A stretch of 64,000 nt of DNA from Octopus sinensis (lineage: Eukaryota): assembly GCF_006345805.1 (NCBI RefSeq), contig NW_021836291.1, positions 418,654 to 482,653 of the forward strand, given 5' to 3'. The notes under the pieces are model-generated. The model made no database searches. It was not told the origin of the DNA and saw only the letters and a program-made list of their open reading frames with translations. Made by a program: the position numbers and the translations under genes. This document shows, piece by piece, positions 1 through 64,000 of this stretch (the first letter of the stretch is position 1; each line of letters starts with the position of its first letter).

Positions 1-1940
1 TCGCTGGGTACAACGAAGGGACGTTTATGGCTCGTCAATATGTACATTCCACCTCCCGGCTCTTGTCCAAGGAGCTATAGCCTCCCAACTCTCTCAAAAC
101 TGGCACGCATCGACGGAGTTATCTTATGCGGTGACTTTAATGCAAAACACCCCTTTGGCTTTCAACTCATTTGGCGGATATGGGAGGGAAATCTTTACTT
201 TTCCAATTGGACTCTCAAAAGAGAAGTTGTCACCAGGAAAGTTCCAATTCCATACAATTACAAAGCGGCGAAATGGTCATGTTCCAAGAGATATTGAACA
301 CGAGACTAAAGAATTGCAATCTGTGCAACTTTAGCTTTTTTTCGAAGATTATTCTGGAAGCAATGGCTATACCAAAACGTCCATCTCACGCTGCTGAAGG
401 AGATCCGACCTGGCCAAGGAGAGAAATCGCCTCAAGAAGTCAAACCGAATGTCTTCCGACATAATTACTCGCATCAGATATTCGAACAAGGAATTGAAGA
501 CCTGTCTAAAGTGAAATCCCATTCTTTCTACCGTGAACCGTAATCGTTCAACGGGAGAAGTGTGGAAAGCCATTCGGCACGTGGCCAGGGGGGACGTTCC
601 CGAATCTTCCGAAGATTACGATCAAAAAGACGTGAACAACCTCATCAAATTCTATGCGAAAACTGCACACAAGGAGCACAGGAAATCTGATTCATTCCCC
701 TCTAACAGAAGCCTAAAGAAACGGGCGGAACCTCTTCTCCTCTCGGTAAAGGAGGTGGAAGATACCTTGCACTCCACAAAATGATAGTACTCTCATGGCC
801 CGGACAAAATCCCGGTAATTCTATTAAAAAACCTTGGTGTCGAAGGACTCACGTTCCTAACATCTATCTTCAACTATTCAATCAACAACAATGTGATTCC
901 GTCATTGTAGAGAGGGTCAAGTCCACTTACAGTTACTGACGGAATTCACTCGTACCGGTTTTGCCAGCAAACCGAGGCACCAATAGAACGTGTTTTGGTC
1001 CGTAGACATTCACAAAGCCTTCGACTCTGTCTCGAGGAAGCTCCTATCAAGGAAGATATTCCAAACTGAATTTCTTCCAAAACTTGAAATTCCTCTTCCT
1101 AAGTTGGCGAAGGGGGAGGGTGTGCCTCGGAGGCGTGAAGTCCACATCTCGTCTCCTTTCCAACGGAGTACCTCAGGGATCCCCCTTATCCCCGGCCCTT
1201 TTCCTGGAAGATGTCCCGTCCTCCCTCGACAATAATGACATTGTCCTTTCGGACGACATCGTATGGACCGGGACATCCAGAAGACTTCTGAAAGGCTCCA
1301 AGCTAACTTGAATTGGCTCAACCTATAGCTAACTGACAACCGACTCGTGGTAAACGCGGCGAAGTCCGTCACGTCTCTTTTCACATCTGACAAAAGATTG
1401 TGAAGGGTTTCGGTCGACTTGAAGTTGAATAATGTGTCCGTACCCTTCTACAGAAATCAGATGGTCTAGGGGTAACCCTCGACGTGCACCTCTGCTTCTC
1501 CCCGCAGGCAGACAACCTCCTTCGTAAATGGGAGGAAAAAATTAACATGCCTATCCGGTTTATGGAAAAACGGTTCCCACCAGGTATTGGCAAATATTTA
1601 CTGCCAATACTTCGAACCATCAATTGCCTACGCCTGCGGATCATGGGGTCCGCGGTTAGGGTGGTCCAACAGGAGGCGAATCGAGGAAGTTCAACAAAGG
1701 GCCCTCAAATTAACCGAACGTTGGTCACACGATAACGAACGCCCCAGAAGACCTAATCAAGCTGAACCTCGATCTGTCGGCAAATGCTCCGTCAAAAACG
1801 GCCTGCCCCCAGGTGGGATCTTGTGTGGGCTCGTAGAAAGATTACTGAGCGAAGATGAGGTCCCTGGTCGAGTGCATCGAGATCACGTGACGTTTGTTGA
1901 TTTTTACCGTGGTCTTGACGGTTAAATACAAAAATAAGAA
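1..1940 (+). mobile_element. Degenerate APE-type non-LTR retrotransposon (endonuclease + RT), with frameshifts and stops
   Basis: APE motif ILCGDFNAKHP; RT motifs HGPDKIP..LLKNLG, SVDIHKAFDSV, GVPQGSPLSPALF and LSDDI, spread over several frames; YACGSWG thumb region. Confidence 0.85.
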
Positions 1941-2282
1941 TCTAATTGACAATTTGTTTCTTTGGGGTTTTGATTAATTTGTATTGAATTTAATCTCTGG
2001 TTCCATCATTCAATTATTATAAATAACGTCATCCTGAGAGACATCACTTTCAAGGTCATTATTAACTAATTTTAAAATTTCTGGAAAAATTAAAAACCCA
2101 TTAATAAAATTGAATTAAAAAGTATCTTTTACCATTAGTCTCCCATAGAGGCCCCAATACTTTGTAAAGCCTAATTAAATTTTAAACAAAGGGGAATTAA
2201 TATTATCAACAATTGAGTCTTAACACGATCTTATATAAGTCATGCGCAGTGAAGCTGATATATGTATATTTCATTGTCAGGA

Positions 2283-3524
2283 ATGAATGTTTAAATTAGT
2301 GCAGTCATTTGATAGAAAAACGATAAGGAAGCGCCTGTCAATATCGCAAAAACAGAGAGGATTAGCTTTGTTAATTGCAACTCTCCTGTGACGTTTAAAA
2401 AAGTAAAAATGTCATTTTTCATAAACACTTCATAACTTACCGTAAATTAGCAGATAGTAAACGTGAAAGTCTTGTTTCTCAAAATTGGCGAGATTGATAC
2501 GGTGAAGGAACAGTTTACTGCAGATGTCCTAATCCAAGTCAGTTGGAAAGAATCAAAAGATTCGCTCGGAGTTAATGCTTACCCGTCAATGCAACAGGGG
2601 AGGATTGACTTGACTGAGTTCTGGGACCCCGACATGCATATCGAAAACATTTTGGTGGAACAGAAGGACTCAGGATGGATTGACACCATTTCTGTCGAAA
2701 CCGACCACGTTTTTCTTGTCAAAAAGAGAAGAGTTCAAGGAATCTTTATGGAAAAGTTAGAGTTAGAGAATTTTCCCTTTGATGTGCAGGTAGAATAAAG
2801 AATATAGTGAGTAGGACTTGACGGTCAAATTGATAAGTCGACATGACTCAGATAAACTCGAATTTATAACCGATGATGGAGAAAATGGGGTCAATACTAA
2901 TTCGTTCGTGGACAAACAAGTCTCCGCCCCATGTAATAATAGAAATGGAAGTTGTACAGTCACTTTGAAGTCGAGATACGAAACGACGAGACAAACATGT
3001 TTTCTAAACTTAAACACCCCTCAATCTCCTTCATGTGCCAAGTCGAACGAAGGCCTGGCTTCTTCTATTGGAATGTATTTCTGATAATGGTGGTGGGCTG
3101 ACTATATTCAAGTGGGGAATCGCCATTTTGTCTTTCACTACTTTTGCAGTGGACAACCTCAGTACCCATCAGCGGCTTCAGTTGACTTTCACCCTCATTT
3201 TGACCACAGTCGCCTTCAAGTTTGTGGTCAATCAAAGCTTGCCTAAAATATCTTACCTGACATATGCGGTAGGTTAGTTTGAACATTTTTAGGATAAATA
3301 TATACTATTTTCATTGTCTCTTCTGGGAACGGTGTGCATATGGCACAGTGTTGTTCCTTACTTTGTCAATTCTCTCGGTCTTGTCAAGGAGTACTATGTC
3401 GTTTTGGGCATGTTACTCGTCTTTTTTACTTATCACGTCGTTTTCATCATCAGTATTTTCAAACAGGCATGGTTCAGTACTTAACCTAACTAGGCCTTCT
3501 ACAAAAGAAGGGTCGTCCGAATGA
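2283..3524 (+). CDS. Cys-less (Pro-loop) pentameric ligand-gated ion channel subunit, multi-exon; last exon and stop uncertain
   Basis: IGEIDTVKEQFTADV..W, FWDPDMHIEN, LELENFPFDVQDL, RRPGFFYWNVF (M1), RLQLTFTLILTTVAFKFVVNQSLPKISYLT-DKY (M2-M3), then M4. Exons join across GT-AG introns such as 2289-2315, 2403-2450 and the 25-nt intron at ~2790-2814. Confidence 0.85.
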
Positions 3525-3964
3525 ATGAACGAAAGGTTAGGAATTTAGAATTACTCCCAGTTCAAAGCCAAGTTCAACCATGTACAAAATCACTCTTTAT
3601 CAATTGTCTAATTCTCACCAAATTAGTTAAAATTTTTTATTTTCGATAATTTTTGATTTAAAACGTCATGAAATTTTTAAAAACGCAGAAAAATTCTTTA
3701 TCTCCACGCTAAAACTTCTCAAAGATTTATTCTAGTTATAAACTAATCATTTTGTAAATGAACATCAAGAGACATAAATTGATAAAGTGGAGGGTTTCCA
3801 TTTTTTTTCGCAGATAAAATTTACAGTTTTCGTGTAAGAAATATACATATGATTGCTACAACCGAGTTTTGGTCACTTAACCTACAACTGGAGGTCTCCC
3901 GTCATAGGAGGGCTGAAAATATTTCTGATTATTTTATTCCCATAACAAGAATTACATAAAATAA

Positions 3965-6828: not shown

Positions 6829-7846
6829 ATGTCTGCTGGTGGATCAAAGTTCGACATTGCCTGTGCTAACTTTGCCGAGATAACAGACACAGACACTGCA
6901 TTAGCCATGTTCTATCTGCAGGACGTGGACTGGGATTTAGAGGTATGTACAAACTATGAGTACCACCAGAGGGCACTTAATAATTACTTCCGAACAACCA
7001 AGAACGACTCCCCATCCCAAAATAGGTGACATTTCGTTAATATAGTAAAGAATATATTTAAAGGTAATGTCTTGGAATATCCAGGGACTTGAAACTCGCA
7101 GTCTTCGCCTAAGAACTCTCGAGGTTGCCCGAATAATATCTGAGTATTTTCTTGCCTAACACTCTCAGGGGCTCTTTCGATGTTGTCATGTTACAGGAAG
7201 TGGTTCCAGCCACTCTCGACATTCTACAAAATGTTATGAAGGACAGTTATTCCATCCATTCCTCCCCAACTGCTCTATATTTCACTGCCACTCTTCTTCG
7301 TCGAGAAACAGCAAGGCTAGTTGATTTCCAAGTCAAAGAGTTTGAGGGAAGTCGAATGGGAAGAGGTCTTCTACAAACCCGAGCTCGTTTTGAGGGGTTT
7401 TGGGGGGCGTGAAATTCTTTTTTATAACACTCACCTGGAGAGTTGTCGACAGTTCTCTGCAGAGAGAAAGTCTCAACTAAAAATGTCTTTTAATTTTCTC
7501 AACTCAGCCGATTCTGGTATTTTGGCCGGAGACTTGAATTTGAACGACAAGGAGGTGGTGATGTGCCTTATATTCGTAGGTGGCAGCCATTGGTGGTGTC
7601 CCCGATGGACTAGTTGATGTGTGGGAGGCGACAGGAGGCAGGAAGGAGACGATGCATACGTGGGACACTACTCGAAATCACAATTTGAGGTGTAGCTATG
7701 CTTGTAGGAAACGGATGGACAGAATGTACTTAAAAAGTGATTTACTGACACCTATTCACTTTGAATTGGTGGGTTTGGAGATCGTGCCTAACACTCAACT
7801 GTTTCCCAGCGATCACTGGGGGATTGTTGCACATTTTGTTCTTTAA
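6829..7846 (+). CDS. TDP2: Tyrosyl-DNA phosphodiesterase 2
   Basis: UBA-like FAEITDTDTALAMFYLQDVDWDLE; EEP motifs SWNIQG, DVVMLQEV, THLES, AGDLN, DVWE..TWDT..N, RMDR, FPSDHWG. Introns of 25-27 nt; one homopolymer frameshift near 7395-7410. Confidence 0.92.
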
Positions 7847-8228
7847 ATTTTCTTTTGAATGTTTATTAATATGATAATTTGCTTGTCGACACTTTGCTAG
7901 CTTGTACAATATTCTCATGTTATTGCGAAGCATGGGAAGCCTTTTGTAAGAATATCCTCAATGATGAGGTCCTTAAATCCTACACGCCAAAAAATTTAAG
8001 AAAATATTTTCTTGATTTTGGTTAAAATAAACAACTAAGATATCCCCGACTTACACGATTAAGTGCTTAAAACCTTCCCACCAAAAAAATTTTAAAAAAT
8101 TCCTTTTCAAATTTGACTTTGACAGAATGTGGAAATAGAAGATTGCCGACTTTAAATAAAGTGTGCAATGAACAGATTTTTAAAAAACCTTGACAGTTAT
8201 AACAACATTAACACAATTGACAGCGCTT

Positions 8229-10899: not shown

Positions 10900-11860
10900 A
10901 ATCACCGTCTTAACCATTAACTAACGTGTTCAGGTGATTCCGACACTTCTCAACAGTCGAGCCATCTTTTCACGATGTTCAGACCGTGACCCCACACACT
11001 TTCTGTATATACGGTGAATGGTTTGTGGTCCATCTCTACGATCCCCCCCATTTGCCTCTACGAGAGACTCCAGTGTTCAATGGACAATTTCCCTATCGGT
11101 ATGGTCCTTCAATAGGTTGATAGATTTTTCTTGGATTTTTTCGATTTTTAGCTGGTTCGTTGCCGCCAGGTTACAGCCCCAAGCAGCACATGCATACCCT
11201 TTTGTTGGCTCGATATACTGCTTGTAAAGGGTCTCTACCCCTGGCGGATAAGTTCTCCCACAGTTCCAAAGGAAGGCTTTCACAAAATTGATCTTCTTTA
11301 TACAGGTTGACACGATCGATTCAACGTGAGGTGAAAAACAGAGGAAAGTATCAAACGTTACACCCAATATCTTCTGTGTTTTCTTTTGTGGTATTGGGAC
11401 TCCATTCAGCGTGACTTCAATAGTTTTCGTCCCCATCTTCCTGTTTTTCGTGAATAGGGTGACTGCTGACTTTTCGGAACATGCATGTAGTCTGTTTTCA
11501 TATAGCCATCCATATAAGTCGTCCAGTATTCTTTGTAGTCTTTCCTTCGCGTATTCGACATTTACATCCCTAGATGCGACAACTATGTCATCGGCATAGG
11601 AGAGTAGTATGTCATTATTATCCATAGGAACTGGGAGATCATTCAGAAACAAGTTGAAGAGGGTCGGGGATAAAGGAAAACCCTAGGGTACACCATTGGG
11701 CAATAAGCGTGATCTTGAACTCTCGTTCCCGACTTTCCCACGACGTCCGCTCAAAAAATTTGCTATCCATAGCTTCATAGGTGTAGAAATTTTTGTACCA
11801 AATATCTTTTGAATTAGGATCTTCCTTGGGACGGAGTCAAACGCTTTTTGAATGTCGAAA
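10900..11860 (-). mobile_element. 5'-truncated LINE RT fragment related to the element at 1-1940
   Basis: FDIQKAFDSV, GVP.G.PLSPTLFNLFLND, LLSYADDIVV, KILGVTFD, YACAAWG. Confidence 0.85.
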
Positions 11861-14790: not shown

Positions 14791-15873
14791 ATGAGCGATC
14801 CAATTCTTAATAATCTAGTTCAACCTGACTTCAGGAATGGTAGGTTTTATTGTCCATGGCTTGGTTTCTCTGATGTCAGCCTTTTTCAACGTATCAAATA
14901 CTATTTGACTTACTCGGACTCCGTGAATGAAACCAAAGTAAATGTTCTGATCAATTCTAGGAATTGGAAGATACTGTTTTCTGTGTATCACCAGAGAAGA
15001 GACCTGTCCGCTCTAAAGAATTGATTGTCACGTGGATATCTCACAGCTATCTTCTAGTCCAAATGGACAATTTAAATATCCTTGCCGATCCCATTGTATC
15101 GGACATTGTGCTGTCCAGGTACATTTTTCCCCCGAGGGTAAATAAAAATGCCATATCCATCTCCGAATTGCCCGAGATTGAGTATGTGCTAATCTCTCAC
15201 AGCCACCACGACCACTTAGACTACCCTGCTATCACACAACTACACCAAAGATTTCCAAAAATTAAATTTCTAGTCCCTCTCAAGGTCAAAGCATTAATTC
15301 TGTCTGTGTGCGAGGCTCAAGTTGAGGAGTTTGGATGGTGGGACCAAGTCCAGTTAAGTAATCAAGTCACTGTGGCATTCGTACCTGCTCAACACGGAAG
15401 TAGAAGATCCCTTTTTGACGAAAACAAAGTTTGAGGTCGATATGATAGTAAGACACTCTGGGGAGGGTGGTGTTTGGTGGGAACAAGTGATGTTGGAACA
15501 TTTTACTATTCTGGAGACACTGGATACTATCAGCCAATCTTTAAAACCATTGGCATGAAATATGGGCCCTTCGACGTTGCTGCACTCCCAATTGGTGCGT
15601 ACGCTCCAAAATTCTTATTCAAATACCAACATGCTGACCCCAGGGAGTGCATTCTTATTCAACAAGATGTTCAAGCTAAACACTGCATTGGAGTTCATTG
15701 GGGGACTTTTCGGCTGGGATATGAGGTTGTGTGACAATTTATTTTAGGGAATCTTTGAGCCTCGCCACGTTCTTAATAAAGAGAAGGAATCGCTCGAGCT
15801 GGAAGAAGCCACGTTTAAGTGCATTCGGGCTGGACAAACTATGGACAGAAATGGATCAATTATTCATTTTTAA
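14791..15873 (+). CDS. NAPEPLD: N-acyl-phosphatidylethanolamine phospholipase D (metallo-beta-lactamase fold)
   Basis: NGRFYCPW, TWISHS, NILADP, ISHSHHDHLD, PAQH, YYSGDTGY, PIGAYAP, HADP, GVHWGTF. Introns 14938-14960, 15429-15452 and 15726-15747. Confidence 0.9.
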
Positions 15874-23600: not shown

Positions 23601-26600
23601 GGGACCTCCGATCTTTACGACATGGTCCTTTTACAAACACTCCAGACTAGAATTGTATGTTTGAATGTCGTTCATTATTAGAGTTTGATGGTTAAAGTTC
23701 GGGAGGGGACGTCTCTCCACATTCTGAGTATAATGGGGCATTGGTTGGGGTGTCTTACTATTGCCATCGACCGAGGATTCCCTCTCACTGTTCTACTTTC
23801 CACTACAATTTAGAACTATAATCCGTATCGTATGACTCAGATACTCTATTTCTTCCCAGCTGGCGTCCTGTTGAATGCTCACGTGCTTTTTATAATCGAA
23901 TTCTTGAAATGTTCAAAATATTCAGAAATTGTATTGTGAGGAGTATTCACTGTAGGTCTTTGCAATGCCCAATCCTTATGTGCTGGGAATAATGAAATTG
24001 CTTATGTTACTGCATGTGCAGGGAAGACTTTATGCACAAACAGGACTTGAATTGGACTCGTTGTGCATTATTTTGTCCACCAATGACATTGTTAATTTAT
24101 TGGTGGCAATTGTAGAACTTTCCTGAGAACAAGAACAGAATGAGTCCAGATGAGGAGCCCTTTGATCAATCCATGCTTAATCTATTTATCCAGCCATTTT
24201 TGCCATACAAGCCCCCTCCTCAGAAAGGGAATAATTTTGAGACATATCCCAGCGACTCTCTCTATGGGCAGACTGGAGGGAGACACTATTCTATGTCCCC
24301 ACTTATAACTCAGGAGAACATTTGCATGTGGAAGACTTTCCTTCGATTTGATGACGTGGTATGGTTGCCGTATAATTGCAGATAAACTTTGACCCGAATA
24401 TTAAGAAGCAGATATTGTTGGATGTGGAGTACATAATGAGTGATGTTACCGAGACATTCCTCAAGTCTTTTTCTGTGCAGCCGGGGGTTGTTGTGTGTGA
24501 GTTAGTGAATAGGAGTCAGCGGAGGCAAGTGTTGAAAGGATTGTCATGTCACAACAATTCCAAGTTAGTTTGCAGCAAAAGATGACTAATGTTCTGCAAA
24601 ACACTTTAGGCCAGTTCTACAACCTTGATGTAACCTGTTGTGGTTTATTGTAGTCGGAATCTATTCTTTCCAAATGTAATGAAATTTGTTTTCAAAACTG
24701 GACTCTATTTATCGATACTATCCGATTTACTATTAAGAATTACTTGGAACACTACAATGTACTGCGTTTGATTATTCCAGGCGGAGATGTACAATTACTA
24801 CCAGTCATACCGACCATCACCAACTCCTCAAGTAGCCAACAAATCGGAGGCACAACGACGAAAGGTCGTGGACTGTTTGATGGAAATAAACGACAAGATT
24901 GAATGCAAGGAAATTATCAAGACATGTCTGGATAGAATGATCAGCGAATTAGATAAAGTACAACTCAATAACAGAGAACAAGTCCTTTCTCTCGTCAGAC
25001 TTGTAATTATGTTAGTTTCACCTATAGAGTATTCACGTCTTTTTCCAGTATTTCAGTGGACAGTTCTTTAAAGGAAAACAGTTCGAGTCAAACTATATTT
25101 CTGACTTTATGCTCTACTTTTTCCGTTATTTGTACCACGAGACTCCCCTCCACACATCTGTTCAACAAAACTTCCTCATGTATTTGCAGGGTTGTAGAGT
25201 TCTAGTTATGTGTGGGCCGAGGATGTCTCTATTCGACGTAATTTGGAGGCCAATTTGTTTATAGTCACATACATTGTCCCTGTCACGGAATTTGACGACT
25301 TTATGTCCCAGGTGTGTCTGTTTTTTTATTCTAGTCACTCATCGCAGGGGAGCCGGACGAATACTCGTTTTTCATTGAGTTTGAGCGGTTCATGAAGATG
25401 GCGGTTCGTTTTTTGTGATATTCATAGAATACTCCGCTCCAACCTCTGGTCAAATCAATGGCTGTTCTCAAGCAGACGCGGGAAATGTAAGGGCTATAAC
25501 TCATTCTAGCCCACAAATAACAACGGAGATGCAAGTCCCAGCAACCAATATATTGGCAGGGAATCATCGAGCGTCACAACTAGCGGAAGATTTGTTGGTA
25601 GTACTTTCCGGCAAGAAAATTGGTTTACGGACACACCATGACCATGTTCTGACCTTAATTTGTGACAATTCACTGATTATGTCCGTTTGCAACGATGATA
25701 CGATAACTGCTGTTTTCTACCATTCTTTCCTGATTTGCCGTTCTTTTTCAGACTGGTACTGATCATTTTCCATAGAATAGGTTGGTGAGTCAATTCGACG
25801 AACGATCCTATATCTTCTCCACTCTGTTGTTCTACTTTGTTGACCAATTGACTGTTTTCTACTCAACCTTGGTCGTTAACTCAGAAAGATTTACCTCACA
25901 TCCTCGGATGTCAATTCTCCAAGCTGTGAATATTGTGTTGTAATTTGTAGTTGCTGACTGTGCTTTCCATTGTGATGGCCGAGGACAATTGTCACCAAAT
26001 TTGCTACCAACGAATACTCATTGGTCTGTTCAAACGACTCACTGAGGTGCTAAAGGGTCCGGACTGTGCTCAGGCACTTTTTTTCTTTTCGTTGGTATTT
26101 TGGGTATATAAATAGAAATTTCATGGAGGAGTCTCAGCCTGGCAAGTTGGACAGATTCGCCTTTTCGTGGATGTCTCTTCTTTCTAATCGGCTCGTTCTT
26201 GCCCGATTTCTCCGTAACCTGAGAGATAATTGGAGGACATACTCCTCCTTGGTAAAATACTCTCTCATATATACTCAAATCATTTTTGAACACGTCAACT
26301 GTGTCCGTTCATTTGCTTGTTACTTCAAAACGACGTGTTTTCTGTTGATTCGCCTGCTGAAGGAAGTACCCGAGCTATTCGCTTTGCATTACATGTCTTT
26401 GGTTTGTCACGTGCCTATGCACGCACACCAATTTTTCAATATAATAATCTCCGCCATCCCGAGGGAAGAGTACATTGAGGAGAAGGACGGGACCAACACT
26501 CCCCGCATAATGGGGGCAATATTCGAGCCGATCGAGGACAGTCTGAAGACCCAACTCGACGTGTATTTGCGGGAACGACAGTCCGTGGGCTTCCTTGTGC

Positions 26601-27162
26601 ATCTTAAAGAGTGCATTGCGAGTAGTGTCGAGATGGGGACGGAGTACGACGTGAAATTGCTCAATTCGCTTGTGCTTTATATCGGAATGCAGGCCATAAC
26701 TTACATCAGTTCAATTCAAGAGGAAGGAGTGACCTATACCATCGACAATATTGGATATAGTGGACACACTGATGTATTCCAACATCTTCTCGTCAATCTG
26801 GACATGCAGGGGAAATATTTGCTCATCGTATCAATGCTGAACCACGTACGTTACAAGAGCAGGCACACCAATTATTTCACGTGTGCGATCCTCCAATTGT
26901 TCGCCTATTGTGACAGTCCAATCATTCGGGAGATGATAATCACGTATGCCCATTCCTCATTCCCAGTCTCTTGATCAGGAGATTGATGGTCAGAAGGCCT
27001 CATCCTTGGGGGCTCATGAATTTGTTTTTGATTTTGACCACAGTTCCTGAATGCGACTTTGAAAACTTGACATTCGTCAGCAAGAGGATCATGCGGTTGT
27101 CCCTTTTCCTAATATTACAGATGTGTCAAGGATTTCCAGTTGTCGTGCAGAAATTCATTTAG
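20650..27162 (+). CDS. CNOT1: CCR4-NOT scaffold subunit NOT1, highly divergent, many micro-introns; 5' exons tentative
   Basis: C-terminal NOT1 domain: FAFSWMSLLSNR, GTEYDVKLLNSLVLYIG, LDMQGKYLL..LNHVRY..HTNYF, RRLMVRRPHPWGL. Upstream MIF4G-like LSIMGHWLGCLTI near 23.7 kb; continuous same-strand exons. Confidence 0.85.
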
Positions 27163-37877: not shown

Positions 37878-38754
37878 ACGTGGTCATTAATAATATTTTT
37901 TGACAATTAATGAAATTAAATTGACTTATTTTGTTCACCCACTAATTACTGATCTTCCATTCTTTAAAAATCCTGGCTTTGATCCGAATCGAACGTAGAA
38001 CGGGAAGTTGTAGTGTAATTTTTTGAAGGAAATTGCTTGTATGGCAGATCTTTGTATAATAGCGTGAGAAATCCTCCACTGTTTTCTATGATTAAGTCGT
38101 TAAGACTTTTATGGAAAAAAATTGGTGTCTTGTTAATATTTTCCACTTTAGAGAGCTGATTTTAGTCCATTTAACAGAGTTAATTCCCCAGGCAAAGCAG
38201 GAATGATTGATAATCCGTTAGTTAAACTGTTTGTATAGAGACTTAGAGAGTTATGCTTCCTTCCAAAATAATTTGATCATTTAAGCTTCCTGACCGGCAA
38301 CCCGTGATGCATTCAAACGAGATCAAAAATTTCATGTGAGATTGGAGGATAACTCAGGAATTTGTTGTTAAAGGGATGTTGGTCTATTCTCCTGCGGAGG
38401 AATACTTAGCTTAAGATTTGCAATATACATCAAGATTGATTCACGTGCCATTGCCTTGAGGATCAAGTTCGGATCCATTTGATCCCTTACTCTAATATAT
38501 CAAACTATCTTACTGAACCTGATCAAATACTTTAAAAATCCCACCTCAGAGGCGAGAAACATAATAAATCACTTCTAAAATAATAGAGTCCATATTCAAA
38601 TCTAAAAATATGTTTATTTTCACCAAAAAACGCGAGATCCCCATGTGTGTGCAACCAATCGACCTGATTTTTTCAAGAAAACTAAATCCGTGATTTTTGA
38701 CTATATTAACTTGTTAAGAAATTAATAAATCAGAAAGGTTATATATCAATTTTG

Positions 38755-39194
38755 ACATACGATCTATGGCAGGGGAGTTGACCATTCTTTACGACGCTCA
38801 AGTGAAAATAATTCCACTGGTTTTGACTTGGACGGGCTTGTTTCCAAGTTTTTTTAAGAAATACATTAAAAAGTTGGCTATCGAAGACGCAACTCAGTCT
38901 TATATACAGTCAGTTATATTGAAGAAAACATTGGAGAATATGATTGTTGAGCATAGATATGGGATCAGAATCACTGATGAGGGGATAAATTCAGCCAATA
39001 GTCTCTTAATTGAAGCAAGTCATTCGTATGAAGATAATATGGAGAATGAGGGAAAAAGAGTCGCAACTAACTTAGAGACAGAGGATCAAGGAGTGGTGTT
39101 GGTTACTTCCTCCTCTAAAAGGGGGAGATCAACCTCCAGCGGACAACGGTCGGATTAACATCGATTAAATAATATTAACTTAATCCATTTTGTT
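38755..39194 (+). mobile_element. 5'-truncated R4-like retrotransposon 3' end with an 11-bp TSD
   Basis: YDL..ELTILYDAQVKIIPLVLTW..YIQSVILKKTLE; TATCAATTTTG at both 38744-38754 and 39195-39205. Confidence 0.85.
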
Positions 39195-39452
39195 TATCAA
39201 TTTTGTCGTTTTATGAGCGTTTTTGCATGGATCTGATTTTTTCAGATATATAAAGTAAATTGTATTAGCCTGTTTGACTTCTTTTAGAACCTTTGTTCCT
39301 GCCAAACAAAAGACTTTTTGACAAACACACACATTCTTCAATAAAGGAATTTGTTCAAATATGTGATTAAAATTGACTATTTAATTTAAAAACATATTTA
39401 ATGGTGCTTGGTTCGAGCAATCAGTATGTTTTTGAAATCCTTATGTGCCTCT

Positions 39453-39825
39453 TTTTATGCCTCATGCGACCCTCAGTGGTTGCATTTATGTGGCACCGCC
39501 ATATTTGTTTCATGACCTGACTTTGTTTACCTGTAGCATTTTACAGTCGCATGAAAGCAGATGGAATGCTATCCATATAACTATATGGCCATGAAGGTTC
39601 CATGTATATTACGTGCACCCCGGATTGACGAGTGACGCCGTCATCAGTAACTCCACTGCGGAACCGGATGTCTATCTCAGCCACAGCACAAAAGAAAATA
39701 GATGGAACAGAGACATATGTTTTCGTTTGGATTCTTAATAACATGTTCTCTCTCTGTCTTGATCTTATGTGGTCGCACAAACTTTGTCATGATTCATGGC
39801 ATCGAGAAAGTGCGTATAATACTAA
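39453..39825. mobile_element. 373-bp apparently non-coding insertion (SINE-like or non-autonomous) with an 11-bp TSD
   Basis: TATGTGCCTCT at 39442-39452 and 39826-39836; the homologous spacer (about 58304 and 63327) has a single empty site. Confidence 0.7.
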
Positions 39826-40329
39826 TATGTGCCTCTGATATTCAAGATCTCTTTGATGAATCACCCGATTGTTTTAAAAATTTAAAGACTAGCCCGTTTT
39901 TACACATTTTTTTAAAAATCAACTCGAAATTTTATGTAAAAGTGATCTGAACGAGTTGGTATCATAGAATTTTTTTAACATTAGAGGCAATTTGATTGAT
40001 AAAACTTTAGAATAGAATACTTTTTTATTATTCAAGAAAAACCAAAACCCAAAAGATCATTACAGGGAAAATAAAAATAAGGCATCAAAGTGTCTCTTTC
40101 CATGCTAACTCAATTATAATTACGTAAAACCTCCGGTAGACCGAAGAAAAAATGACGGGCAATAGAATTTGGCAAGCAATGGAAATAATCAATAAATTTT
40201 TTGACTTTGAAATTTTGAAAACATCTCGGTTTTCGATACTTTCCGATCATAAGTGAGCCTTCCAAGTCATATTTGAGCAAAGAAACAAAGAGAATCGAAA
40301 GAAATTAAAAGGAAAAAATTAACTAAAAA

Positions 40330-49877: not shown

Positions 49878-49958
49878 GCCAACATGGCCGAGTGGTTAAG
49901 GCGGTAGCTTCAGGTGCTATTACGGAAACGTGCGTGGGTTCGAATCCCACTGTTGGTA
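49878..49958 (+). tRNA. tRNA-Leu (anticodon CAG)
   Basis: Acceptor stem GCCAACA/TGTTGGT, D-arm TGGCCGAGTGGTTAAGGC, anticodon arm GTAGC-TTCAGGT-GCTAT, long variable arm, T-arm GTGGGTTCGAATCCCAC, then TTTT (Pol III terminator). Confidence 0.93.
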
Positions 49959-54799: not shown

Positions 54800-56477
54800 C
54801 TCTGGCCTCGAATTCTTGGTGCGATTGGTGCAAGTTTCTTTCATTTGTCCCTGTCTGTCTGGGCAGCCCTTTAAACGGCCCTCTTCGTGGTGACCGTTTG
54901 TCCGTCTCGCAGCAAATTAAAACAAACTGCGAGTTTTTCAACAATTCAGAATTTGATATCAGCTATTTTTCCCTTCATGCTGCTGAAAGGCTCCTTCGTC
55001 CAATTCAGAGCACTCAGGACATTACTCGAATGGTTCGCAGCAAGCTTATGCAAGGCGACGTTCGGAGTGCAGTACGTGCCATTTCCCCGAACACTACAAT
55101 TGCCCCTCCCCTTCTGATAAAGTCCTCGACCAATTGCCCTCTAAACACCCCGGTGCATCTGAAATCCCAGATCTGATTACTGATTCCCATTCTGTATATC
55201 CCGTCTCTTCAACAGAAGTAACTGCCACCCTCAGTTCTTTTCCATTCAGTAGCAATGAGGGTATCGATGGCAGCTGACTTCTGCAAAATGTAATGAAATC
55301 CCATTTCTCCTTAAAATTGATGTCAAAAACGCGTTCAACTCGATTCGGCGCGATCATATCCTTGAAACTGTCCGAAGTCGTTTCCCTGCCTTATATTTGA
55401 TCGTCCATCTGGCTTACGCCTCCCTCAGCTGTCTCTTGTTTGCCGACAATGTTATTATGTCCGAAACTGGTATTCAACAAAGCGACCCTCTTGGGCCTCT
55501 TTTATTCTCACTCGGTGTTGATCACATTGCCCGCCAATTGTCCTCTGAGGTCAACATTTGGTACCTCGATGATGTTACTCTTGGTGGGGCTTTGGAGATC
55601 GTCAAGAATGATGTAGAAAAAAATTATTTCTGGTTTTGCTTCCATTGGACTCGCTTTGAATGGATCCAAATCCGAGCTGATATGTTTGTCTGCGAGCCAT
55701 TCAGAATTCAAACTTATTTTTTCCACCTTATCTCACCATATTGAAGACCTGTCAATCACCCAGCTTGATGACCTTATCATTCTGGGTTCCCCAATCAATA
55801 GCAAGGCTACTAGGAAGGCTTTATGTAACAGGCTCGAAGAATTGGAAACTCTAATCTCCCGCATTTCCAAACTTGAATCCCATTTAGGCCTTTTCTTGCT
55901 CAAGAACTATCTCTTTATACCAAAGCTAACTTATCTCATGCGCTCATCGCCCTGCTTTCTCGAACAAAATCACTTATCTCGTCTCGACAACATGGTCTCC
56001 AAAACTCTTGAGCTACTCGTAAATATCAAATTCAAACCTTCAGACATACGACGGGTTAATTTACCTATTCGTTACAGGGCATCGGCATTCGTTCTTGTGA
56101 AGATTTATCCCTCCCATGTTATCTTTCCTCGTTGTCTGCTTCCGCTAGTTTCGTCAACTCTGTTCTCTTCCCCTTCTCTGAACAGCCCGAGTTGTTGGAA
56201 TATGCGGCAGGTGTCAACATGTGGATTAATTGTGGGCTTAAAACCCCGGACGTCCCCTCAGTTCAAAAGAACTGGGATGATATACATTGTTCCCATGTAC
56301 TCGAAGATATCCGACTACGTGCTGACCAATTTCAGTTAGCAGGCATTAATTGTGCCTGTCAACCCCACTCGGCCGATTTGCTTGACGCATTGCCGGTTTC
56401 CTCTGCTGGAATGTTCCTGGATAACGAATTCGGCCGCACTGGTTTGTGTCTACGCTTTGGGATCGAGATTTGCCAGC
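54800..56477 (+). mobile_element. CRE-like retrotransposon, internally deleted and cut off at the rDNA array edge
   Basis: KLMQGDVRSAVR, DVKNAFNSIRRD, GIQQSDPLGPLLF, WYLDDVTLGG, LLKNYLFIPKLTYLMRSSPC, LDALP..LDN; ends abruptly at CLRFGIEICQL. Confidence 0.88.
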
Positions 56478-58986
56478 TACGTCAACAAAATTTACCTTAG
56501 TGGCAAGAAACATAATAAATCACTTCTAAAATAATAGCGTTCTTATTTAAATCTAAAAATGCGTTTTTATTTTCACCAAAAATAAACGCGAGATCTCCAC
56601 TTGTGTGCAACCAATCGACCTGATTTTTTCAGGACAACTGCCTCCCTTGATGGTCTACTATATTAACTTGTTCAACCTCCTCTAAACCTTTTTACTATCT
56701 CAAACTAAGGAATCATGTACAATGTAACTTAAGATGTCAGACTTACAATGTAAATAAGAAAATAAATAAATTAATAAATTAAAAATATTGTTATATATCA
56801 ATTTTGATGTTTTATGAACGTTTTTGCATGCAAAACTGGAGTCAGACGTTCCTAGACCTTAGTTTCTTTATAGGCTACTACAATGTATGCTAATGGCCTA
56901 TCTATAAGGGCCCTTCTACAAGAGGCCTGGAAATATGCTGTTTATTGATAAAATCTCTAGAATACATTAACAAATTCCCTAAAATTATAAATTAGTTGAT
57001 TAACAAATTTGAAAAACTGAACTGTCTGAACTTTACATATGTCTAACTAAAAATGAGTCTTTATTTCCCGACAAAACACCCCCCGAGATCTCCACTTGTG
57101 TGCAACCAATCGACCTGATTTTTTCAGGACAACTGCCTCCCTTGATGGTCTACTATATTCTCTTGTTCAACCTCCTCTAAACCTTTTTACTATCTCAAAC
57201 TAAGGAACCATGTACGATGTAACTCAAGATGTCAGACTTACAATGTAAATAAGAAAATAAATAAATTAATAAATTAAAAATATTGTTATATATCAATTTT
57301 GATGTTTTATGGACGTTTTTGCATGCAAAACTGGAGTCAGACGTTCCTAGACCTTAGTTTCTTTATAGGCTACTACAATGTATGCTAATGGCCTATCTAT
57401 AAGGGCCCTTCTACAAGAGGCCTGGAAATATGCTGTTTATTGATAAAATCTCTAGAATACATTAACAAATTCCCTAAAATTATAAATTAGTTGATTAACA
57501 AATTTGAAAAGCTGAACTGTCTGAACTTTACATATTTCTAACTAAAAATGAGTCTTTATTTCCCGACAAAACACCCCCCGAGATCTCCACTTGTGTGCAA
57601 CCAATCGACCTGATTTTTTCAGGACAACTGCCTCCCTTGATGGTCTACTATATTCACTTGTTCAACCTCCTCTAAACCTTTTTACTATCTCAAACTAAGG
57701 AACCATGTACGATGTAACTTAAGATGTCAGACTTACAATGTAAATAAGAAAATAAATAAATTAATAAATTAAAAATATTGTTATATATCAATTTTGATGT
57801 TTTATGAACGTTTTTGCATGCAAAACTGGAGTCAGACGTTCCTAGACCTTAGTTTCTTTATAGGCTACTACAATGTATGCTAATGGACTATCCATAAGAA
57901 CCCTTCTAGAAGAGGCCTGGAATTATGCAGTTTATTGATAAAATCTTTAGAATACATTAAAAAATTCACTAAACATATTATAAATTAGTTGATTAACAAA
58001 TTTGAAAAGCTGAACATAATTCTAACTAAATAAGTCTTTATTTCCCGACAAAACACCCCCCGAGATCCCCACGTGTGTACATGCAATCGACTCGATTTTT
58101 TCAGACATAAGTGTGTAAATATGATAGTAAATTGTATTAGCCTGTTCAACCTTTTTTAGGACCTTCATCCATGTCAAATCAAAGCCTTTTTGATAAACAC
58201 GTGTCTCAATAAAGGAAATTTGCTCGAATATGTATTTAAAATTGACTATTTAAGTTAAAAATATATTTAATGGTCCTTGAACAATTAGTATATTGACATT
58301 TTTATGTGCCTCCGATATGCGAGATCTCTCCAGCGGCCTAATTGTTCTTAAACTTTACAAACTAACTAGAAGCCCGTTAACATAATTTTTCAAAAATCAA
58401 ATTTAAATTCTATATAAAAGTGATCCGAGCGAGTTAGGATCATAATAACACTAAATTCAATTTGCTCCGCCAGAACGTGTCCCAAGCAATAGTGAGGGGA
58501 AACAGGATCGCCATCAGTTCTTCTTTACATGTAAAATTTTAACAAATAAAAAAATTAAAGATTTATTTAAAAAAGGAATAACAAAATTAAAAAACAGTAA
58601 AAGATTGCTTTTTTGACCCTCGGTGGAAGTTGGAGATGAATCTGTGCAAATTCGACTCCAAGATCCGACCCCCCAATAACGAATGTTTTTTTCTGCCTCT
58701 CTATGAAAAGATCGTCGTTATCCTGGCGAAGAGATTTGCGATCTGTCAGGCAGCTGGCCCTCCCTTTGATAATTCACTTTTGCTTGAACTAAAAAAAAAG
58801 TCAACTTACTATCTACGCTTCTCAGAAATTTATTATCCGGAAAACAGCCCGCTTTTTCTAGTACATATATCTTTAACCATCGCAGTAAATGTTATACGAT
58901 CTAAAAGTAGCCCGTCTTAACTGGTCGCATCAATATTTTTCTATACTACTATCCAGAGATTTTTTTCAAATTTGGACTTTGCTATA
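56478..58986. repeat. rDNA intergenic spacer / 3' flank, near-identical to 62476-64000
   Basis: Both copies start TACGTCAACAAAATTTACC; in the unique part the offset is 5014 bp (58630 vs 63644). Confidence 0.93.
56590..58090. repeat. Tandem ~495-bp spacer subrepeats (3 units)
   Basis: GAGATCTCCACTTGTGTGCAACC at 56590, 57085 and 57580, with a variant at 58062 (periods 495, 495, 482). Confidence 0.95.
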
Positions 58987-59144
58987 CAAGAGTTTATTTT
59001 AGATTTTGACTTGTTGGTTTGAACTTATCCTAGTAGGCTGGATTAATTGCCCTTTAATAACGTAAGATAGAGAATATAGCAACTATACTACAGTTTCTGG
59101 CCCGTCATAAATAATGGTAGAAGCGTCCGACAAGCGGACAAATT

Positions 59145-60182
59145 TTAGGCAAAGGGATGGACCTCAGTAGATCGCCACTATACGTGGCTTTCGTATGTAC
59201 AGTTCCCATGCCAGTATATGTCGTTTGCATATAATTTAGCACAAAGCTCAGTGAAAATGCAAGTCAACCTGGTGTAACAACAGTTTTTAGTGTTATCAAC
59301 GACACCAAGCCAGTAGCAGCATAAAAGCATAAATTTGCTATACAAGAGCTTCGAACAATATCGTTGCAGCCAGTCAAGATTCTAACTTAGAGGCGTTCAG
59401 TTATTATCTTTCAGACGATAGCTTCGCACCACTGACTTTTCAGTCAAGTGCATGAACCAAATGTCTGACTCTGCAGTTCCTTACGTAATTTGCAGAATTA
59501 CTGTGGCAACGACACTCAATCAGTAGGGTAAAACTAACCTATCTCACGATGGTCTAAACTCAGCTCACGTTCCCTGTTAGTGGGTGAACAATCCTACACT
59601 TTGCGATTTATGCTTCGCAATGATAGGAAGAGCCAACATCGAAGGATCAAAAAGCACCGTCGCTATGTACGCTTGGGTGCCACAAGCCAATTATCCCTGT
59701 GGTAACTTTTCTGTCACCTTTAACTTAAAGCTTATAAAAGTAAAAGGATCGATAGGCCACGCTTTCGCGCCTTGCATACGTACTGAACATGCAAATAAGG
59801 CGAGCTTTTACCCTTTCGCGCTATGGTAGATTTCTGTTCCACCTGAGCTCACCTTTGGACATCTGCGTTATTGTTTAGCAGATGTACCGCCCCAGCCAAA
59901 CTCCCCAAATGACACTGTTTTCAGATCCGATCGACCCCGAACGGGCCTTACACTGCAAACTTTCCCATTAAGGAAGCACGGTATTACTGAATTAGTAGGA
60001 AGACGACTGAGGAAGTGGTCTTACATTGTCGCTGCGGAACAGCTCCCACCTATTACTATATCCCCAATGTCCTCCTACAATGCCAATCTAGAGTCCAAGC
60101 TCAACAGGGTCTTCTTTCCCCGCTGATTGTCACGGGCCCGTTACCCCGTCTGTGGTTTCGCTAGAGTGCTGATAGGGACAGT

Positions 60183-60213
<31 letters not shown>

Positions 60214-60224
60214 TCAATTAAATT

Positions 60225-60277
<53 letters not shown>

Positions 60278-60470
60278 TGCTTAAGTGAATCTCTACACGC
60301 TGACATTCAGGGCACTGGGCAGAAATCACACTGCGTCAAAACCGTTTACGGCTATCGCACTGCTTTGTTGTTATTACACAGTCAGATTCCCCTTCTCCGT
60401 GCCAGTTCTACTTTGGTTGTTCACTGTCCTACCACTCAATGCTCAACTACCACTTACGCAGCAATCAAAC
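59145..60470 (-). rRNA. 28S rRNA, 3' portion only (about domain IV to the 3' end)
   Basis: Reverse complements of GGGAAAGAAGACCCTGTTGAGCTT, CTCTTAAGGTAGCCAAATGCCTCGT, GGGATAATTGGCTTGTGGC, the sarcin-ricin region and the 3'-end helix. Confidence 0.95.
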
Positions 60471-60487
60471 AAAAGGCCTACTAGCAC

Positions 60488-61122
60488 GGCCTACTAGCAC
60501 GCGATTACGTACTACTAGCACACCGAGATCCAACTACGAGCTTTTCAACTGCAGCAACTTTAGTATACACTATTGGAACTGGAATTGCCGCGGCTGCTGG
60601 CACCAGACTTGCCCTCCAATTGCATTCATTAAAGCTTTTACAGTTATTTCATTACGATCTCCTGGCAAATGCCCGGATCCGTTATTTATGATCACTATCT
60701 CTTTATGCCAAAAGTGGATAATTTACGCACCTGCTGCAATCCATAGATCTGGCAGCCATTTCTCATGCTCCCTCTCCGGAATCGAACCCTGATTCCCCGT
60801 TACCCGTTGTAACCACGGTAAGCCACTACCTCACCGTCGAAAATTGATGGGGCGGACATCTAATTGATACGTCGCAGGCACTGCCTGTGATCAGCAAGTT
60901 TATCCAGAGTCAACTAATTCTAATAATTGCGCTTCGAGAAGCTATACGCATGTATTAGCTCTAGATTTACAACAGTTATCCACCGTCGTGTGAGATTATC
61001 AAGTAAGTTATGTCCGATTTAATGAGCCGTTCGCGGTTTCGCTCATTAGAGAGCATGAACTTACACTTGCATGGCTTAATCTGTAAGATAAGCATATGAC
61101 TACTGGCAGGATCAACCAGCTA
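60488..61122 (-). rRNA. 18S rRNA, 5' ~630 nt only (to the start of V4)
   Basis: CTGGTTGATCCTGCCAGTAGTCATATGCTT, GGTTCGATTCCGGAGAGGGAGC, GTGCCAGCAGCCGCGG, AAAAGCTCGTAGTTGGAT; the sequence then passes directly into 28S. Confidence 0.95.
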
Positions 61123-61604
61123 TCTATTACTTTGACTAGAACGCCAAAAAGGACGTTCAAGTGCAATTCAACAAATACCAGCCTCTAGCTGTTCAAGCCC
61201 ATACGCAGAACATAGCCATTCGCTCCAACAGTTGCATTCCAACAACCCATGAAGCAGAATACCGCTTGGTACGAAATAAAAAACCATCTGCAATAGGCAC
61301 AACAAGAACAACCAGCGCCAACTCTGACTATAGGAAACAACTGTCCATCTCGTATACTGGTTCAGGCTTATTTTATTAACTACCCGTAACTTACACACGT
61401 TCAAACTTTCCACAGATAAACTATAGGTCATATAGAGTAACATAGTCGGCTGTGGAAAAAAAGACATGAGAGACTAAATTCTCAAAGCAGCAAGCGGAAC
61501 CCACGTTCATTCGATTTCAAACAGAATAAGCTAGCATTTTTCCAAATGCAAGCCTAAATCCGCTTGCAACCAAAAACGCCCAAAAAGCTTTTCAAATTTA
61601 ACCT

Positions 61605-61616
61605 CCCCCCTATATA
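61605..61616 (-). promoter_or_regulatory. Probable RNA polymerase I transcription initiation site
   Basis: TATATAGGGGGG about 490 nt upstream of the 18S 5' end; resembles the TATA-purine/G-run Pol I start motif known from plants and arthropods. Confidence 0.6.
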
Positions 61617-62475
61617 GTCAAAAAAAGTCGAAATTTATTCTGGGATTTTGGCCATTTTTTCAAATTTTTTTTCTGGTGATTTTTCTATTTCTCTACTGAC
61701 TGTAGCTTGTGCTCCAATTTTATCGAAAGATTAGCCCAAAGCTGGGCAGTCTTTAGTAAGTCAGCCAGTTTCAGGCTGCGGCAAATAAATTACCAGGATT
61801 TTCTGAAAAACAAACTAAATTATTAATAAATTTATAAAAAAAATAATAAAAGGTAACTTATATTATTTTTGGACGCTGAATTCAAAAATGTTATCAGATA
61901 TGAGATCAGACCTTTATACTTCGAGATCTAGAAATTGATCTCTTATCTCCACCTAGGAATGTCTGACATAAAAAAGAACTTGTTTTTCGAGTTCGCCAGA
62001 AAATTTTAGCTAATATAGTTATATTTTATTTCAACTTAATTGTGTAATATTTAAATTTCATTTGACTGATGTAACATGTTTCTAGTGGGAACATGTAATA
62101 AAACATATTAATTCTAAACAAATCACAAATACATAATTAGCAATTAAAAAATATATATAAATGTTAATCTTGACGTTCTAAATTCATTTCTGTATTCAGA
62201 AATCTCATCAGATGTTCCTAGAGAGAGTTATGAATTCTGTCCCTCATTTCTTCAGGAAGGTCTGAGGAGAAAACCGAGGTGATTTCCAAACGCAGGAGGA
62301 AATTTTAGTTAATTTAGTTATAAATTATTATGTTTTAAAGCGATTAAATTTGATGGTTGTTAATTGTTTCTAGTGGGTGCACCACGTGCGATGGGATTCA
62401 GGGTCAACGTCGGATCTATTTGAGTCCCCTATTGTAATATATCAAACCGCAAGTATCTTACTCAATTGGATCAAA

Positions 62476-64000
62476 TACGTCAACAAAATTTACCTTAGTG
62501 GCAAGAAACATAATAAATCACTTCTAAAATAATAGCGTTCTTATTTAAATCTAAAAATGCGTTTTTATTTTCACCAAAAATAAACGCGAGATCTCCACTT
62601 GTGTGCAACCAATCGACCTGATTTTTTCAGGACAACTGCCTCCCTTGATCGTCTACTATATTAACTTGTTCAACCTCCTCTAAACCTTTTTACTATCTCA
62701 AACTAAGGAACCATGTACGATGTAACTTAAGATGTCAGACTTACAATGTAAATAAGAAAATAAATAAATTAATTAATTAAAAATATTGTTATATATCAAT
62801 TTTGATGTTTTATGAACGTTTTTGCATGCAAAACTGGAGTCAGACGTTCCTAGACCTTAGTTTCTTTATAGGCTACTACAATGTATGCTAATGGACTATC
62901 CATAAGAACCCTTCTAGAAGAGGCCTGGAATTATGCAGTTTATTGATAAAATCTTTAGAATACATTAAAAAATTCACTAAACATATTATAAATTAGTTGA
63001 TTAACAAATTTGAAAAGCTGAACTGTCTGAACTTTACATAATCCTAACTAAAAATAAGTCTTTATTTCCCGACAAAACACCCCCCGAGATCCCCACGTGT
63101 GTAAATGCAATCGACTCGATTTTTTCAGACATAAGTGTGTAAATATGATAGTAAATTGTATTAGCCTGTTCAACCTTTTTTAGGACCTTTATCCATGTCA
63201 AATCAAAGCCTTTTTGATAAACACGTGTCTCAATAAAGGAAATATGCTCGAATATGTATTTAAAATTGACTATTTAAGTTAAAAATATATTTAATGGTCC
63301 TTGAACAATTAGTATATTGACATTTTTATGTGCCTCCGATATGCGAGATCTCTCCAGCGGCCTAATTGTTCTTAAACTTTACAAACTAACTAGAAGCCCG
63401 TTAACATAATTTTTCAAAAATCAAATTTAAATTCTATATAAAAGTGATCCGAGCGAGTTAGGATCATAATAACACTAAATTCAATTTGCTCCGCCAGAAC
63501 GTGTCCCAAGCAATAGTGAGGGGAAACAGGATCGCCATCACATGTAAAATTTTAACAAATAAAAAAATTAAAGATTTATTTAAAAAAAGGAATAACAAAA
63601 TTAAAAAACAGTAAAAGATTGCTTTTTTGACTCTCGGTGGAAGTTGGAGATGAATCTGTGCAAATTCGACTCCAAGATCCGACCCCCCAATAACGAATGT
63701 TTTTTTCTGCCTCTCTATGAAACGATCGTCGTTATCCTGGCGAAGAGATTTGCGATCTGTCAGGCAGCTGGCCCTCCCTTTGATAATTCACTTTTGCTTG
63801 AACTAAAAAAAAAGTCAACTTACTATCTACGCTTCTCAGAAATTTATTATCCGGAAAACAGCCCGCTTTTTCTAGTACATATATCTTTAACCATCGCAGT
63901 AAATGTTATACGATCTAAAAGTAGCCCGTCTTAACTGGTCGCATCAATATTTTTCTATACTACTATCCAGAGATTTTTTTCAAATTTGGACTTTGCTATA
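62476..64000. repeat. Second rDNA spacer copy (one subrepeat); implies another unit beyond the window end
   Basis: Near identity to 56478-58986, with subrepeat heads only at 62588 and 63086. Confidence 0.92.

Follow-up and report, generated by a model that had tools for sequence, protein, structure and literature searches.

The 64,000-nt stretch of the Octopus sinensis assembly analysed here (contig NW_021836291.1; hereafter the window) carries on its minus strand, at 59140–61616, a ribosomal DNA (rDNA) unit in which the beginning of the 18S gene is fused to the end of the 28S gene. The fused unit is very probably an rDNA unit with an internal deletion of ~3.4–3.6 kb, running from 18S position ~642 to 28S position 1972 and present in short-read DNA, which likely arose by microhomology-mediated end joining (MMEJ) of the polymerase-theta type with a templated duplication of 13 nt, and which is predicted to be nonfunctional.

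Two rRNA models matched the unit in the Rfam search (cmscan) of the window. SSU_rRNA_eukarya was aligned over model positions 4–605 of 1831 at 60562–61119 (minus strand, 479 bits) and LSU_rRNA_eukarya over positions 1891–3399 of 3401 at 59140–60632 (minus strand, 1166 bits), and neither 5.8S nor any further rRNA was matched across the 64 kb. An intact 18S of 1667 nt from contig C1618 (L011:6101-7767) and an intact 28S of 3313 nt from contig C6303 (L014:6487-9799) served as references. In BLAST, the full-length genes match the window only at 61566–60482 and 60473–58827; the rest of 18S, the first internal transcribed spacer (ITS1), 5.8S, ITS2 and 28S positions 1–1971 are therefore absent. The alignment also showed that the top 160 nt of the LSU envelope (60474–60632) are actually 18S and that genuine 28S identity begins at 60473. 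With a partial SSU, a partial LSU and no 5.8S, the locus is not a functional 18S–5.8S–28S unit.

The join was placed at window positions 60474–60478 by alignment to the two references. Identity to 18S spans 61566 down to 60478–60482 and identity to 28S runs from 60473 downward, so that 18S is kept to ~642 of 1667 and 28S from 1972 of 3313. On the sense strand, the intact 18S reads ...GCGTGCTAGTAGGCC TTTGCTATAG..., with GTGCTAGTAGGCC directly before TTTGCTATAG, and the intact 28S reads ...CTTTACTGCTG TTTGTTTGATTGC... (at the junction itself, ...TACTGCTG TTTGTTTGATT). The fusion reads ...GCGTGCTAGTAGGCC GTGCTAGTAGGCC TTTT GTTTGATTGC.... Each parent has TTT and the fusion TTTT, two T's being attributable to either side, which gives a microhomology of 2 nt (TT). 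By rRNA landmarks, the 18S break lies in what we take to be the early V4 and the 28S break presumably in the expansion segment of domain IV (ES27/D8).

A perfect repeat of 13 nt in 2.1 copies, GGCCTACTAGCAC, was detected by Tandem Repeats Finder at 60475–60501. The 13 inserted nt are identical to the preceding 13 nt, that is, to the last 13 nt of the 18S side, and this second copy is found in none of the three other aligned 18S copies (C1618, C8845 and C8223). A third CTACTAGCAC at 60512–60521 is created by a TAG at 60515–60517 that is the window's own. The missing DNA comprises 18S positions 643–1667 (1025 nt), ITS1 (157 nt on C8223 and ~310 nt on C8597), 5.8S (~149 nt), ITS2 (~116 nt on C6303) and 28S positions 1–1971, in total ~3.4–3.6 kb. 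The preliminary description of this DNA had proposed the order of start motif, ~490-nt external transcribed spacer (ETS), 18S up to early V4 and 28S from domain IV to its 3′ end, the loss of the rest of 18S, ITS1, 5.8S, ITS2 and the 5′ part of 28S, a perfect 13-bp tandem duplication, and a third CTACTAGCAC at the junction. Rfam and BLAST agree with the order and the losses, the first third of 18S and the back 40% of 28S being kept, and the repeat search and alignments with the duplication and the third copy.

Public sequencing runs were compared over 60395–60530. In X2 (a deep run available as Logan contigs, whose sample is also that of run X1), a unitig of 89 nt with a depth of 43.8 covers 60444–60530 without mismatches or gaps, and it includes the join, both 13-mers and the TAG insertion. 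All 31-mers across the join were read in X2, and the join is therefore present in the DNA; this upholds the true deletion that had been proposed earlier, with assembly collapse as its alternative. The unitigs of the intact 28S flank in the same run have depths of 3276–3700, and one of them continues at 60472/60473 into normal upstream 28S. The coverage comparison suggested in the preliminary description thus gives 43.8 for the junction against 3276–3700 for the intact flank, or ~1.2–1.3% of the k-mer depth of that flank, and the join is of low copy relative to intact units, the single-copy depth being uncalibrated. Within the assembly, 40 of the 68 candidate matches to the junction were scored. 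One of these 40 spans the junction and is the window itself, 11 cover the 28S side only, all ending at query position 94, and seven cover the 18S side only, with starts at 109–135. In metagenome contigs, the exact 44-nt junction gave 0 matches. The RNA run X21 yielded no reads whatever over 60395–60530, the intact flanks included, so its silence carries no weight on transcription. X2 excludes an assembler error; it says nothing of the join in other individuals.

The fused unit lies between two intergenic spacers, collinear and in the same orientation, at 56478–58986 and 62476–64000. The stretches 62542–64000 and 57533–58986 are 96.6% identical at an offset of 5009, and the left edges at 62476 and 56478 correspond. 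Subrepeats of 495 bp are present in 3.1 copies in the downstream spacer and in one copy in the upstream spacer. Since spacer is found on both sides, including nontranscribed spacer upstream of the start motif, the deletion happened at the DNA level within a tandem unit and the locus is no retrocopy. The fused unit had also been said to repeat at 5014 bp, and this could not be sustained: the period of 5008–5024 bp is that of the flanking spacer alone and not of the fused unit, the two spacers are unequal (3.4% divergence and different numbers of subrepeats), and no second unit is reached before the end of the contig. The difference of 3.4% and two subrepeats indicates distinct chromosomal copies, and neither a circle read twice nor a fresh tandem amplification. 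A circular molecule or a collapsed duplicate was likewise considered and rejected because the two spacers differ.

The putative start of transcription by RNA polymerase I (Pol I) is retained. TATATAGGGGG occurs once in the window, at 61606–61616 (minus strand), and 18S begins 489 nt downstream of it, with its 5′ end at 61122. The motif presumably resembles Pol I start sites of the plant type. This motif alone is within chance, at least one match with at most one mismatch being found in 70 of 100 shuffles. From 61566 downward, the ETS agrees with that of C1618 at all of 437 nt (100% identity), and the C1618 copy is cut ~45–50 nt downstream of the motif. Two relics, on C8318 and C11633 (85% identity), reach 61657 and keep TATATAAGGGG with ~45 nt upstream of it, where the similarity ends. 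The start motif claimed earlier is thus kept as TATATAGGGGGG within a block of ~80 nt that is conserved in two old, 85%-identical copies, and this block is consistent with a putative core promoter. Neither a second copy of 61658–61797 nor a complete canonical rDNA unit was found in the assembly.

The join would be explained if the DNA broke once or twice, in the V4 region of 18S and in the 28S expansion segment (or only once, with loss of the intervening DNA). Alternative end joining would repair the break(s), a few bases would be copied from the 18S end, and the ends would then anneal at TT. The 2-nt microhomology and the 13-nt insert templated from the flank are those expected of an end-joining scar, and since the duplication is found only with the junction, they support the end-joining or slippage deletion that had been put forward. 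In the accessible text of three papers (PMC7165422, PMC2943611, PMC9303309), templated insertions with microhomology are described as the scar of polymerase-theta or synthesis-dependent MMEJ, and the likeness consists of a deletion, a microhomology of 2 nt and a 13-nt insert copied from beside the break. The difference is that polymerase theta is here a candidate enzyme, and that slippage by itself, or priming on 1 nt, could also yield the tandem insert.

Replication slippage or template switching between T-rich identities (of the type of fork stalling and template switching or microhomology-mediated break-induced replication, FoSTeS/MMBIR), the 13-nt duplication being a separate slippage, is an unlikely and still live rival for the same scar, and from sequence alone it cannot be separated from end joining. 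The V4 start of this 18S natively carries GTGCTAGTA twice, the extra TAG of the window indicates a slippage-prone site, and the microhomology is only 2 nt. On the other hand, 2 nt offer little for simple slippage to jump ~3.5 kb, the duplication accompanies only the junction among the aligned 18S copies, and the X2 unitig is unbranched through duplication and junction (although rare branches are lost from contigs). An artefact of assembly, whether from a collapse or from a chimeric long read, is very improbable. The join is found once in the assembly, in repeated DNA 3.5 kb from where the contig ends, and run X1 gave no contig over the region; nevertheless, a mismatch-free X2 unitig runs through join, duplication and TAG insertion, and a collapse requires homology of the joined parts, of which there is none beyond TT. 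The artefact is thus largely refuted. The least credible explanation is a chimeric retrocopy produced by a template switch of reverse transcriptase from 28S RNA to 18S or pre-rRNA. Retrotransposons are abundant in these contigs, and template-switch chimeras are known in other genomes. Against this, at least 2.4 kb of spacer precedes the start motif and 2.6 kb follows the 28S end, no A-tail follows the 28S 3′ end, and the signs of a retrocopy (transcribed sequence only, with an A-tail or a target-site duplication) are not found.

The fused unit is most likely a dead relic, as judged from its sequence. Any Pol I transcript of ~2.5 kb would build neither ribosomal subunit and would be degraded, because it would hold only a third of 18S, 40% of 28S and no 5.8S. 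It is rather improbable that the fused unit is instead an active and possibly amplified mini-unit, with repeats of ~5 kb continuing past the contig end, its own Pol I promoter and a chimeric pre-rRNA of ~2.5 kb. This would agree with the intact TATATAGGGGGG block conserved in two old copies, the full identity of the ETS (437 nt) to that of the intact 18S copy, the scarce decay of the fused unit, the uncalibrated depth of 43.8, which allows several copies, and the break of the contig in the spacer, as before identical repeats. It disagrees with the spacer difference of 3.4% and two subrepeats, which speaks against recent tandem amplification, with the single occurrence of the junction in the assembly, and with the junction depth of ~1.2–1.3% of the 28S flank; moreover, no RNA evidence was obtained.

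Several points weigh against an MMEJ-derived, nonfunctional deletion unit. The microhomology is only 2 nt and the repeat that would prime the duplication only 1 nt, so classical end joining with a separate slippage is possible. The junction unitig has only 30–31 letters on the 28S side, which is at the limit for bridging; this length results from the construction of the k=31 graph at a branch, and each 31-mer across the join must have been read. X2 is probably derived from the DNA used for the assembly, and is thus independent of the assembler and not of the DNA. Run X9, under another species label, has intact 18S and 28S and no junction contig, although contigs cannot show absence. As the single-copy depth is uncalibrated for this organism, 43.8 fits one copy as well as several. 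Finally, the intact promoter of an active unit is not assembled, so there is no copy for comparison.

The fused unit has hardly diverged from the other rDNA copies. ETS and 18S show one own substitution (61271) and the TAG insertion in 1079 nt, compared with three other loci, and the 28S part shows one own substitution (60295) in 1334 nt. The 28S comparison had six rows from four independent loci (L007 duplicates C6303 and L008 duplicates C8750), of which C12603 covers only half of the 28S part. This near-identity indicates either a young deletion or a remnant that is still homogenised with other copies.

The features of the locus are given in the table.

Table. Features of the fused 18S–28S unit and its surroundings, in window coordinates
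Feature	Position	Strand	Evidence
Upstream intergenic spacer copy with one 495-bp subrepeat, reaching the contig end	62476..64000	-	Self-alignment
Promoter-distal spacer, joined to the subrepeat block in C12597, C9340, C12468 and C12461	61798..62475	-	93-95% matches from window 63131/63163 to 61798-62002
Promoter-proximal stretch with TATATAGGGGGG at 61616-61605	61567..61797	-	Partial 85% matches (61657 downward) on C8318 and C11633 only
Putative 5′ ETS, ~489 nt	61123..61610	-	61130-61566 with 100% identity over 437 nt to the ETS of C1618
18S positions 1 to ~635-642, 5′ domain to early V4, with own TAG insertion at 60515-60517	60488..61122	-	Rfam and alignment
Junction: second 13-nt GTGCTAGTAGGCC (sense, 60487-60475) and first T of the TTTT run	60474..60487	-	Alignment, Tandem Repeats Finder and unitig of run X2
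28S from position 1972, inside a variable segment that follows the GGATTGGCTCTATGGG motif, to its 3′ end at position 3313	59140..60473	-	Rfam, BLAST and alignment
Downstream intergenic spacer copy with 3.1 x 495-bp subrepeats (56589-58104), cut at 56478	56478..59139	-	Self-alignment and tandem-repeat search
Repeat family with common end at 56477 and variable starts, interrupting the spacer and marking the rDNA edge	54900..56477	+	Assembly search

The fused unit seems to be placed at the edge of an rDNA array. The downstream spacer stops at 56478, where it abuts a repeat family ending at 56477. Below this border to non-rDNA sequence, a tRNA gene (49878–49958, plus strand; the third RNA gene found by Rfam in the window) and protein-coding genes are located, and on the other side the contig ends. 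As the spacer is cut by the repeat and ordinary genes lie beyond, the fused unit is the last unit before non-rDNA sequence. Window position 64000 is the end of the 482,653-base contig C12762, ~2.4 kb upstream of the unit. By register, the next 28S 3′ end is expected ~154 nt past this end, so the contig most likely breaks where it enters the high-copy array. The main array itself seems to be unassembled, because the 28S k-mer depth is ~80-fold higher.

The repeat at 54900–56477 gave at least 62 match pieces, all on unplaced contigs, among the 40 of 150 candidate places that were scored. Many of the longer pieces end at query positions 1577–1578 and start at 370, 454, 543, 645, 831 and other positions, and the copy of the window is without ~330 nt that are present in other copies. 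A common end with variable starts is a pattern like that of 5′-truncated long interspersed nuclear elements (LINEs). Its open reading frame (ORF) at 55656–56339 has nothing significant in Pfam.

Two further observations concern the spacer. At 38442–39966, 17 kb inside the contig, an old spacer relic of ~80% identity lies in the same orientation, which suggests that the edge of the array has moved or that an older unit has decayed there. The spacer part at 61798–63163 (1.35 kb, including a subrepeat) is found on at least 20 other contigs with 90–97% identity, with a common end at 63131–63163 and a variable other end; it may be mobile or the source of dispersed copies.

The contig belongs to another organism than most of the assembly. 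For instance, the best 40 copies (93–97%) of a retrotransposon fragment of the window (e.g., 11000–11700) are only on unplaced contigs from C1794 upward and none is on C1–C30. Similarly, the rDNA spacer and the repeat ending at 56477 have their copies on unplaced contigs. The exon of CNOT1 with the Not1 domain at 26066–26974 (Pfam E value 3e-47) shares no more than 42% identity with the CNOT1 of chromosome C4. Repeats restricted to unplaced contigs and a CNOT1 of 42% identity indicate that the window comes from a second eukaryote, whose DNA was assembled along with the main genome. The GC content in 2-kb bins of the window is mostly 0.35–0.44, with a range of 0.30–0.47.

On the plus strand at 14961–15734, a Lactamase_B_2 domain is split over adjacent frames at 15434/15435 (profile positions 2–117 and 121–200), which would fit a tiny intron of ~20–25 nt. 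The plus-strand frames from 20.6 to 27 kb tile likewise around CNOT1. The genome of Dicyema japonicum is described, in the accessible part of its report, with repeats making up 49%, introns of 38 bp on average and a GC content of 36.7% (PMC6736024), and the GC content of the window, its abundant repeats and the split Pfam domain at 15434/15435 all fit this description.

All other rDNA loci that were opened are partial. C1618 has 18S with ~150 nt following it and an ETS that lacks the start motif; C8223 has ETS, 18S without 40 nt, ITS1 and 5.8S; C8845 has 18S 14–881; C12603 has 28S 1736–2652; C6303 has part of 5.8S, ITS2, 28S and 310 nt of spacer; C10266 and C8750 have 28S with an insertion at one site; C8597 extends from the 18S 3′ end to the 28S 5′ end; and C9496 has the ETS only. 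Broken rDNA pieces are present on at least 15 other contigs. Small deletions are also found among the relics, C8750 being without 38 nt at GGTG (a clear microhomology) and C8223 without 40 nt, with 0–1 shared nt. Split or unlinked rRNA genes were considered, as several contigs have 18S or 28S alone, and were rejected: the canonical linkages of 18S–ITS1–5.8S and 5.8S–ITS2–28S are present in the same organism on C8223, C8597 and C6303.

Site-specific elements of the R1/R2 type truncate or interrupt 28S genes. The likeness to such genes is that rDNA units are disabled inside the array, and two 28S copies of this organism carry an insertion at a fixed site; here, no element sequence is found at the 18S–28S join. 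The insertion of a site-specific retroelement behind the common 28S boundary at 60473 was rejected, as the other loci continue there into normal 28S. TAAGGTAGCCAAATGCC, which we take to be the R2 target, was seen at ~60250, ~230 nt downstream of the junction breakpoint.

The insertion in 28S is located at position 1238–1246 and measures 1.87 kb (L038, on C8750, 3509–5378). It has the inverted ends AGGGCAATTTTTT ... AAAAAATTGCCCT and is flanked by a 9-bp duplication, GTAATAACT. The end of a related element is found at the same 28S site in L016 (C10266), at ~7854. This looks like a DNA transposon in a conserved site, or may be one insertion that was later duplicated; the ORFs of the element have nothing significant in Pfam.

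The start of ITS1 shows another regularity. C1618 (L011 ~7767–7920), C11711, C8702 and C8597 have ~150 nt in common after the 18S 3′ end and diverge at one point, and C8223 is without exactly that segment. ITS1 thus seems to hold, at its start, a site of recurrent breakage or insertion.

Two observations were made beside the junction searches. Among the 40 scored assembly matches, 21 are of 95 nt and 84–86% identity to the conserved 18S core that surrounds the 530 loop. Of these, 18 are distributed among many of the main chromosomes C1–C30 (e.g., C1:75813627-75813721) and three are on unplaced contigs. Dispersed fragments of 18S would explain them, as would a repeat that includes such a piece. 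At window position 60425, the X2 unitig of 28S with depth 3276 has C (plus strand) and the window has T, as do the other assembled loci shown; the assembled 28S copies may be a minority variant of the array at this position.

The escape of rDNA pseudogenes and rearranged non-canonical units from concerted evolution is reported, in the accessible text of the respective papers, for human (PMC5381670, PMC7909238) and filamentous ascomycetes (PMC5555474). The fused unit resembles the pseudogenes described there in being derived from the array, having lost essential parts, lying at or outside the homogenised array next to transposons and spacer relics, and being of low copy. As far as these descriptions go, it differs in that an almost undiverged copy has one clean join from 18S to 28S, at which the scar of repair is mapped. 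Its host differs too: in this small co-assembled genome, at least 15 further contigs carry broken rDNA pieces. In kind, the fused unit is ordinary, an rDNA unit with an internal deletion that lies at the margin of its array, in a co-assembled genome rich in rDNA debris.

A wider reading makes the fused unit one product of a genome-wide cutting, deleting, fusing and scattering of rDNA and other genes in a parasite-like genome, a mini-unit which bears a promoter and is still transcribed or amplified at the edge of the array; this is quite improbable. Developmental DNA elimination and circular DNA have been reported in dicyemids, and if the organism is a dicyemid, junctions of the 18S–28S type could be footprints of programmed rearrangement.

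As the junction is real, 'rDNA pseudogene' rather than 'rRNA genes' is the fitting annotation of the locus, and the contig should be flagged as a second organism within the host assembly. The finding opens no long-standing question. The read-supported join with its templated 13-nt copy is a small natural example of unit loss at the margin of an rDNA array, and the fused unit together with the many broken pieces indicates that this small genome tolerates a large load of rDNA debris.

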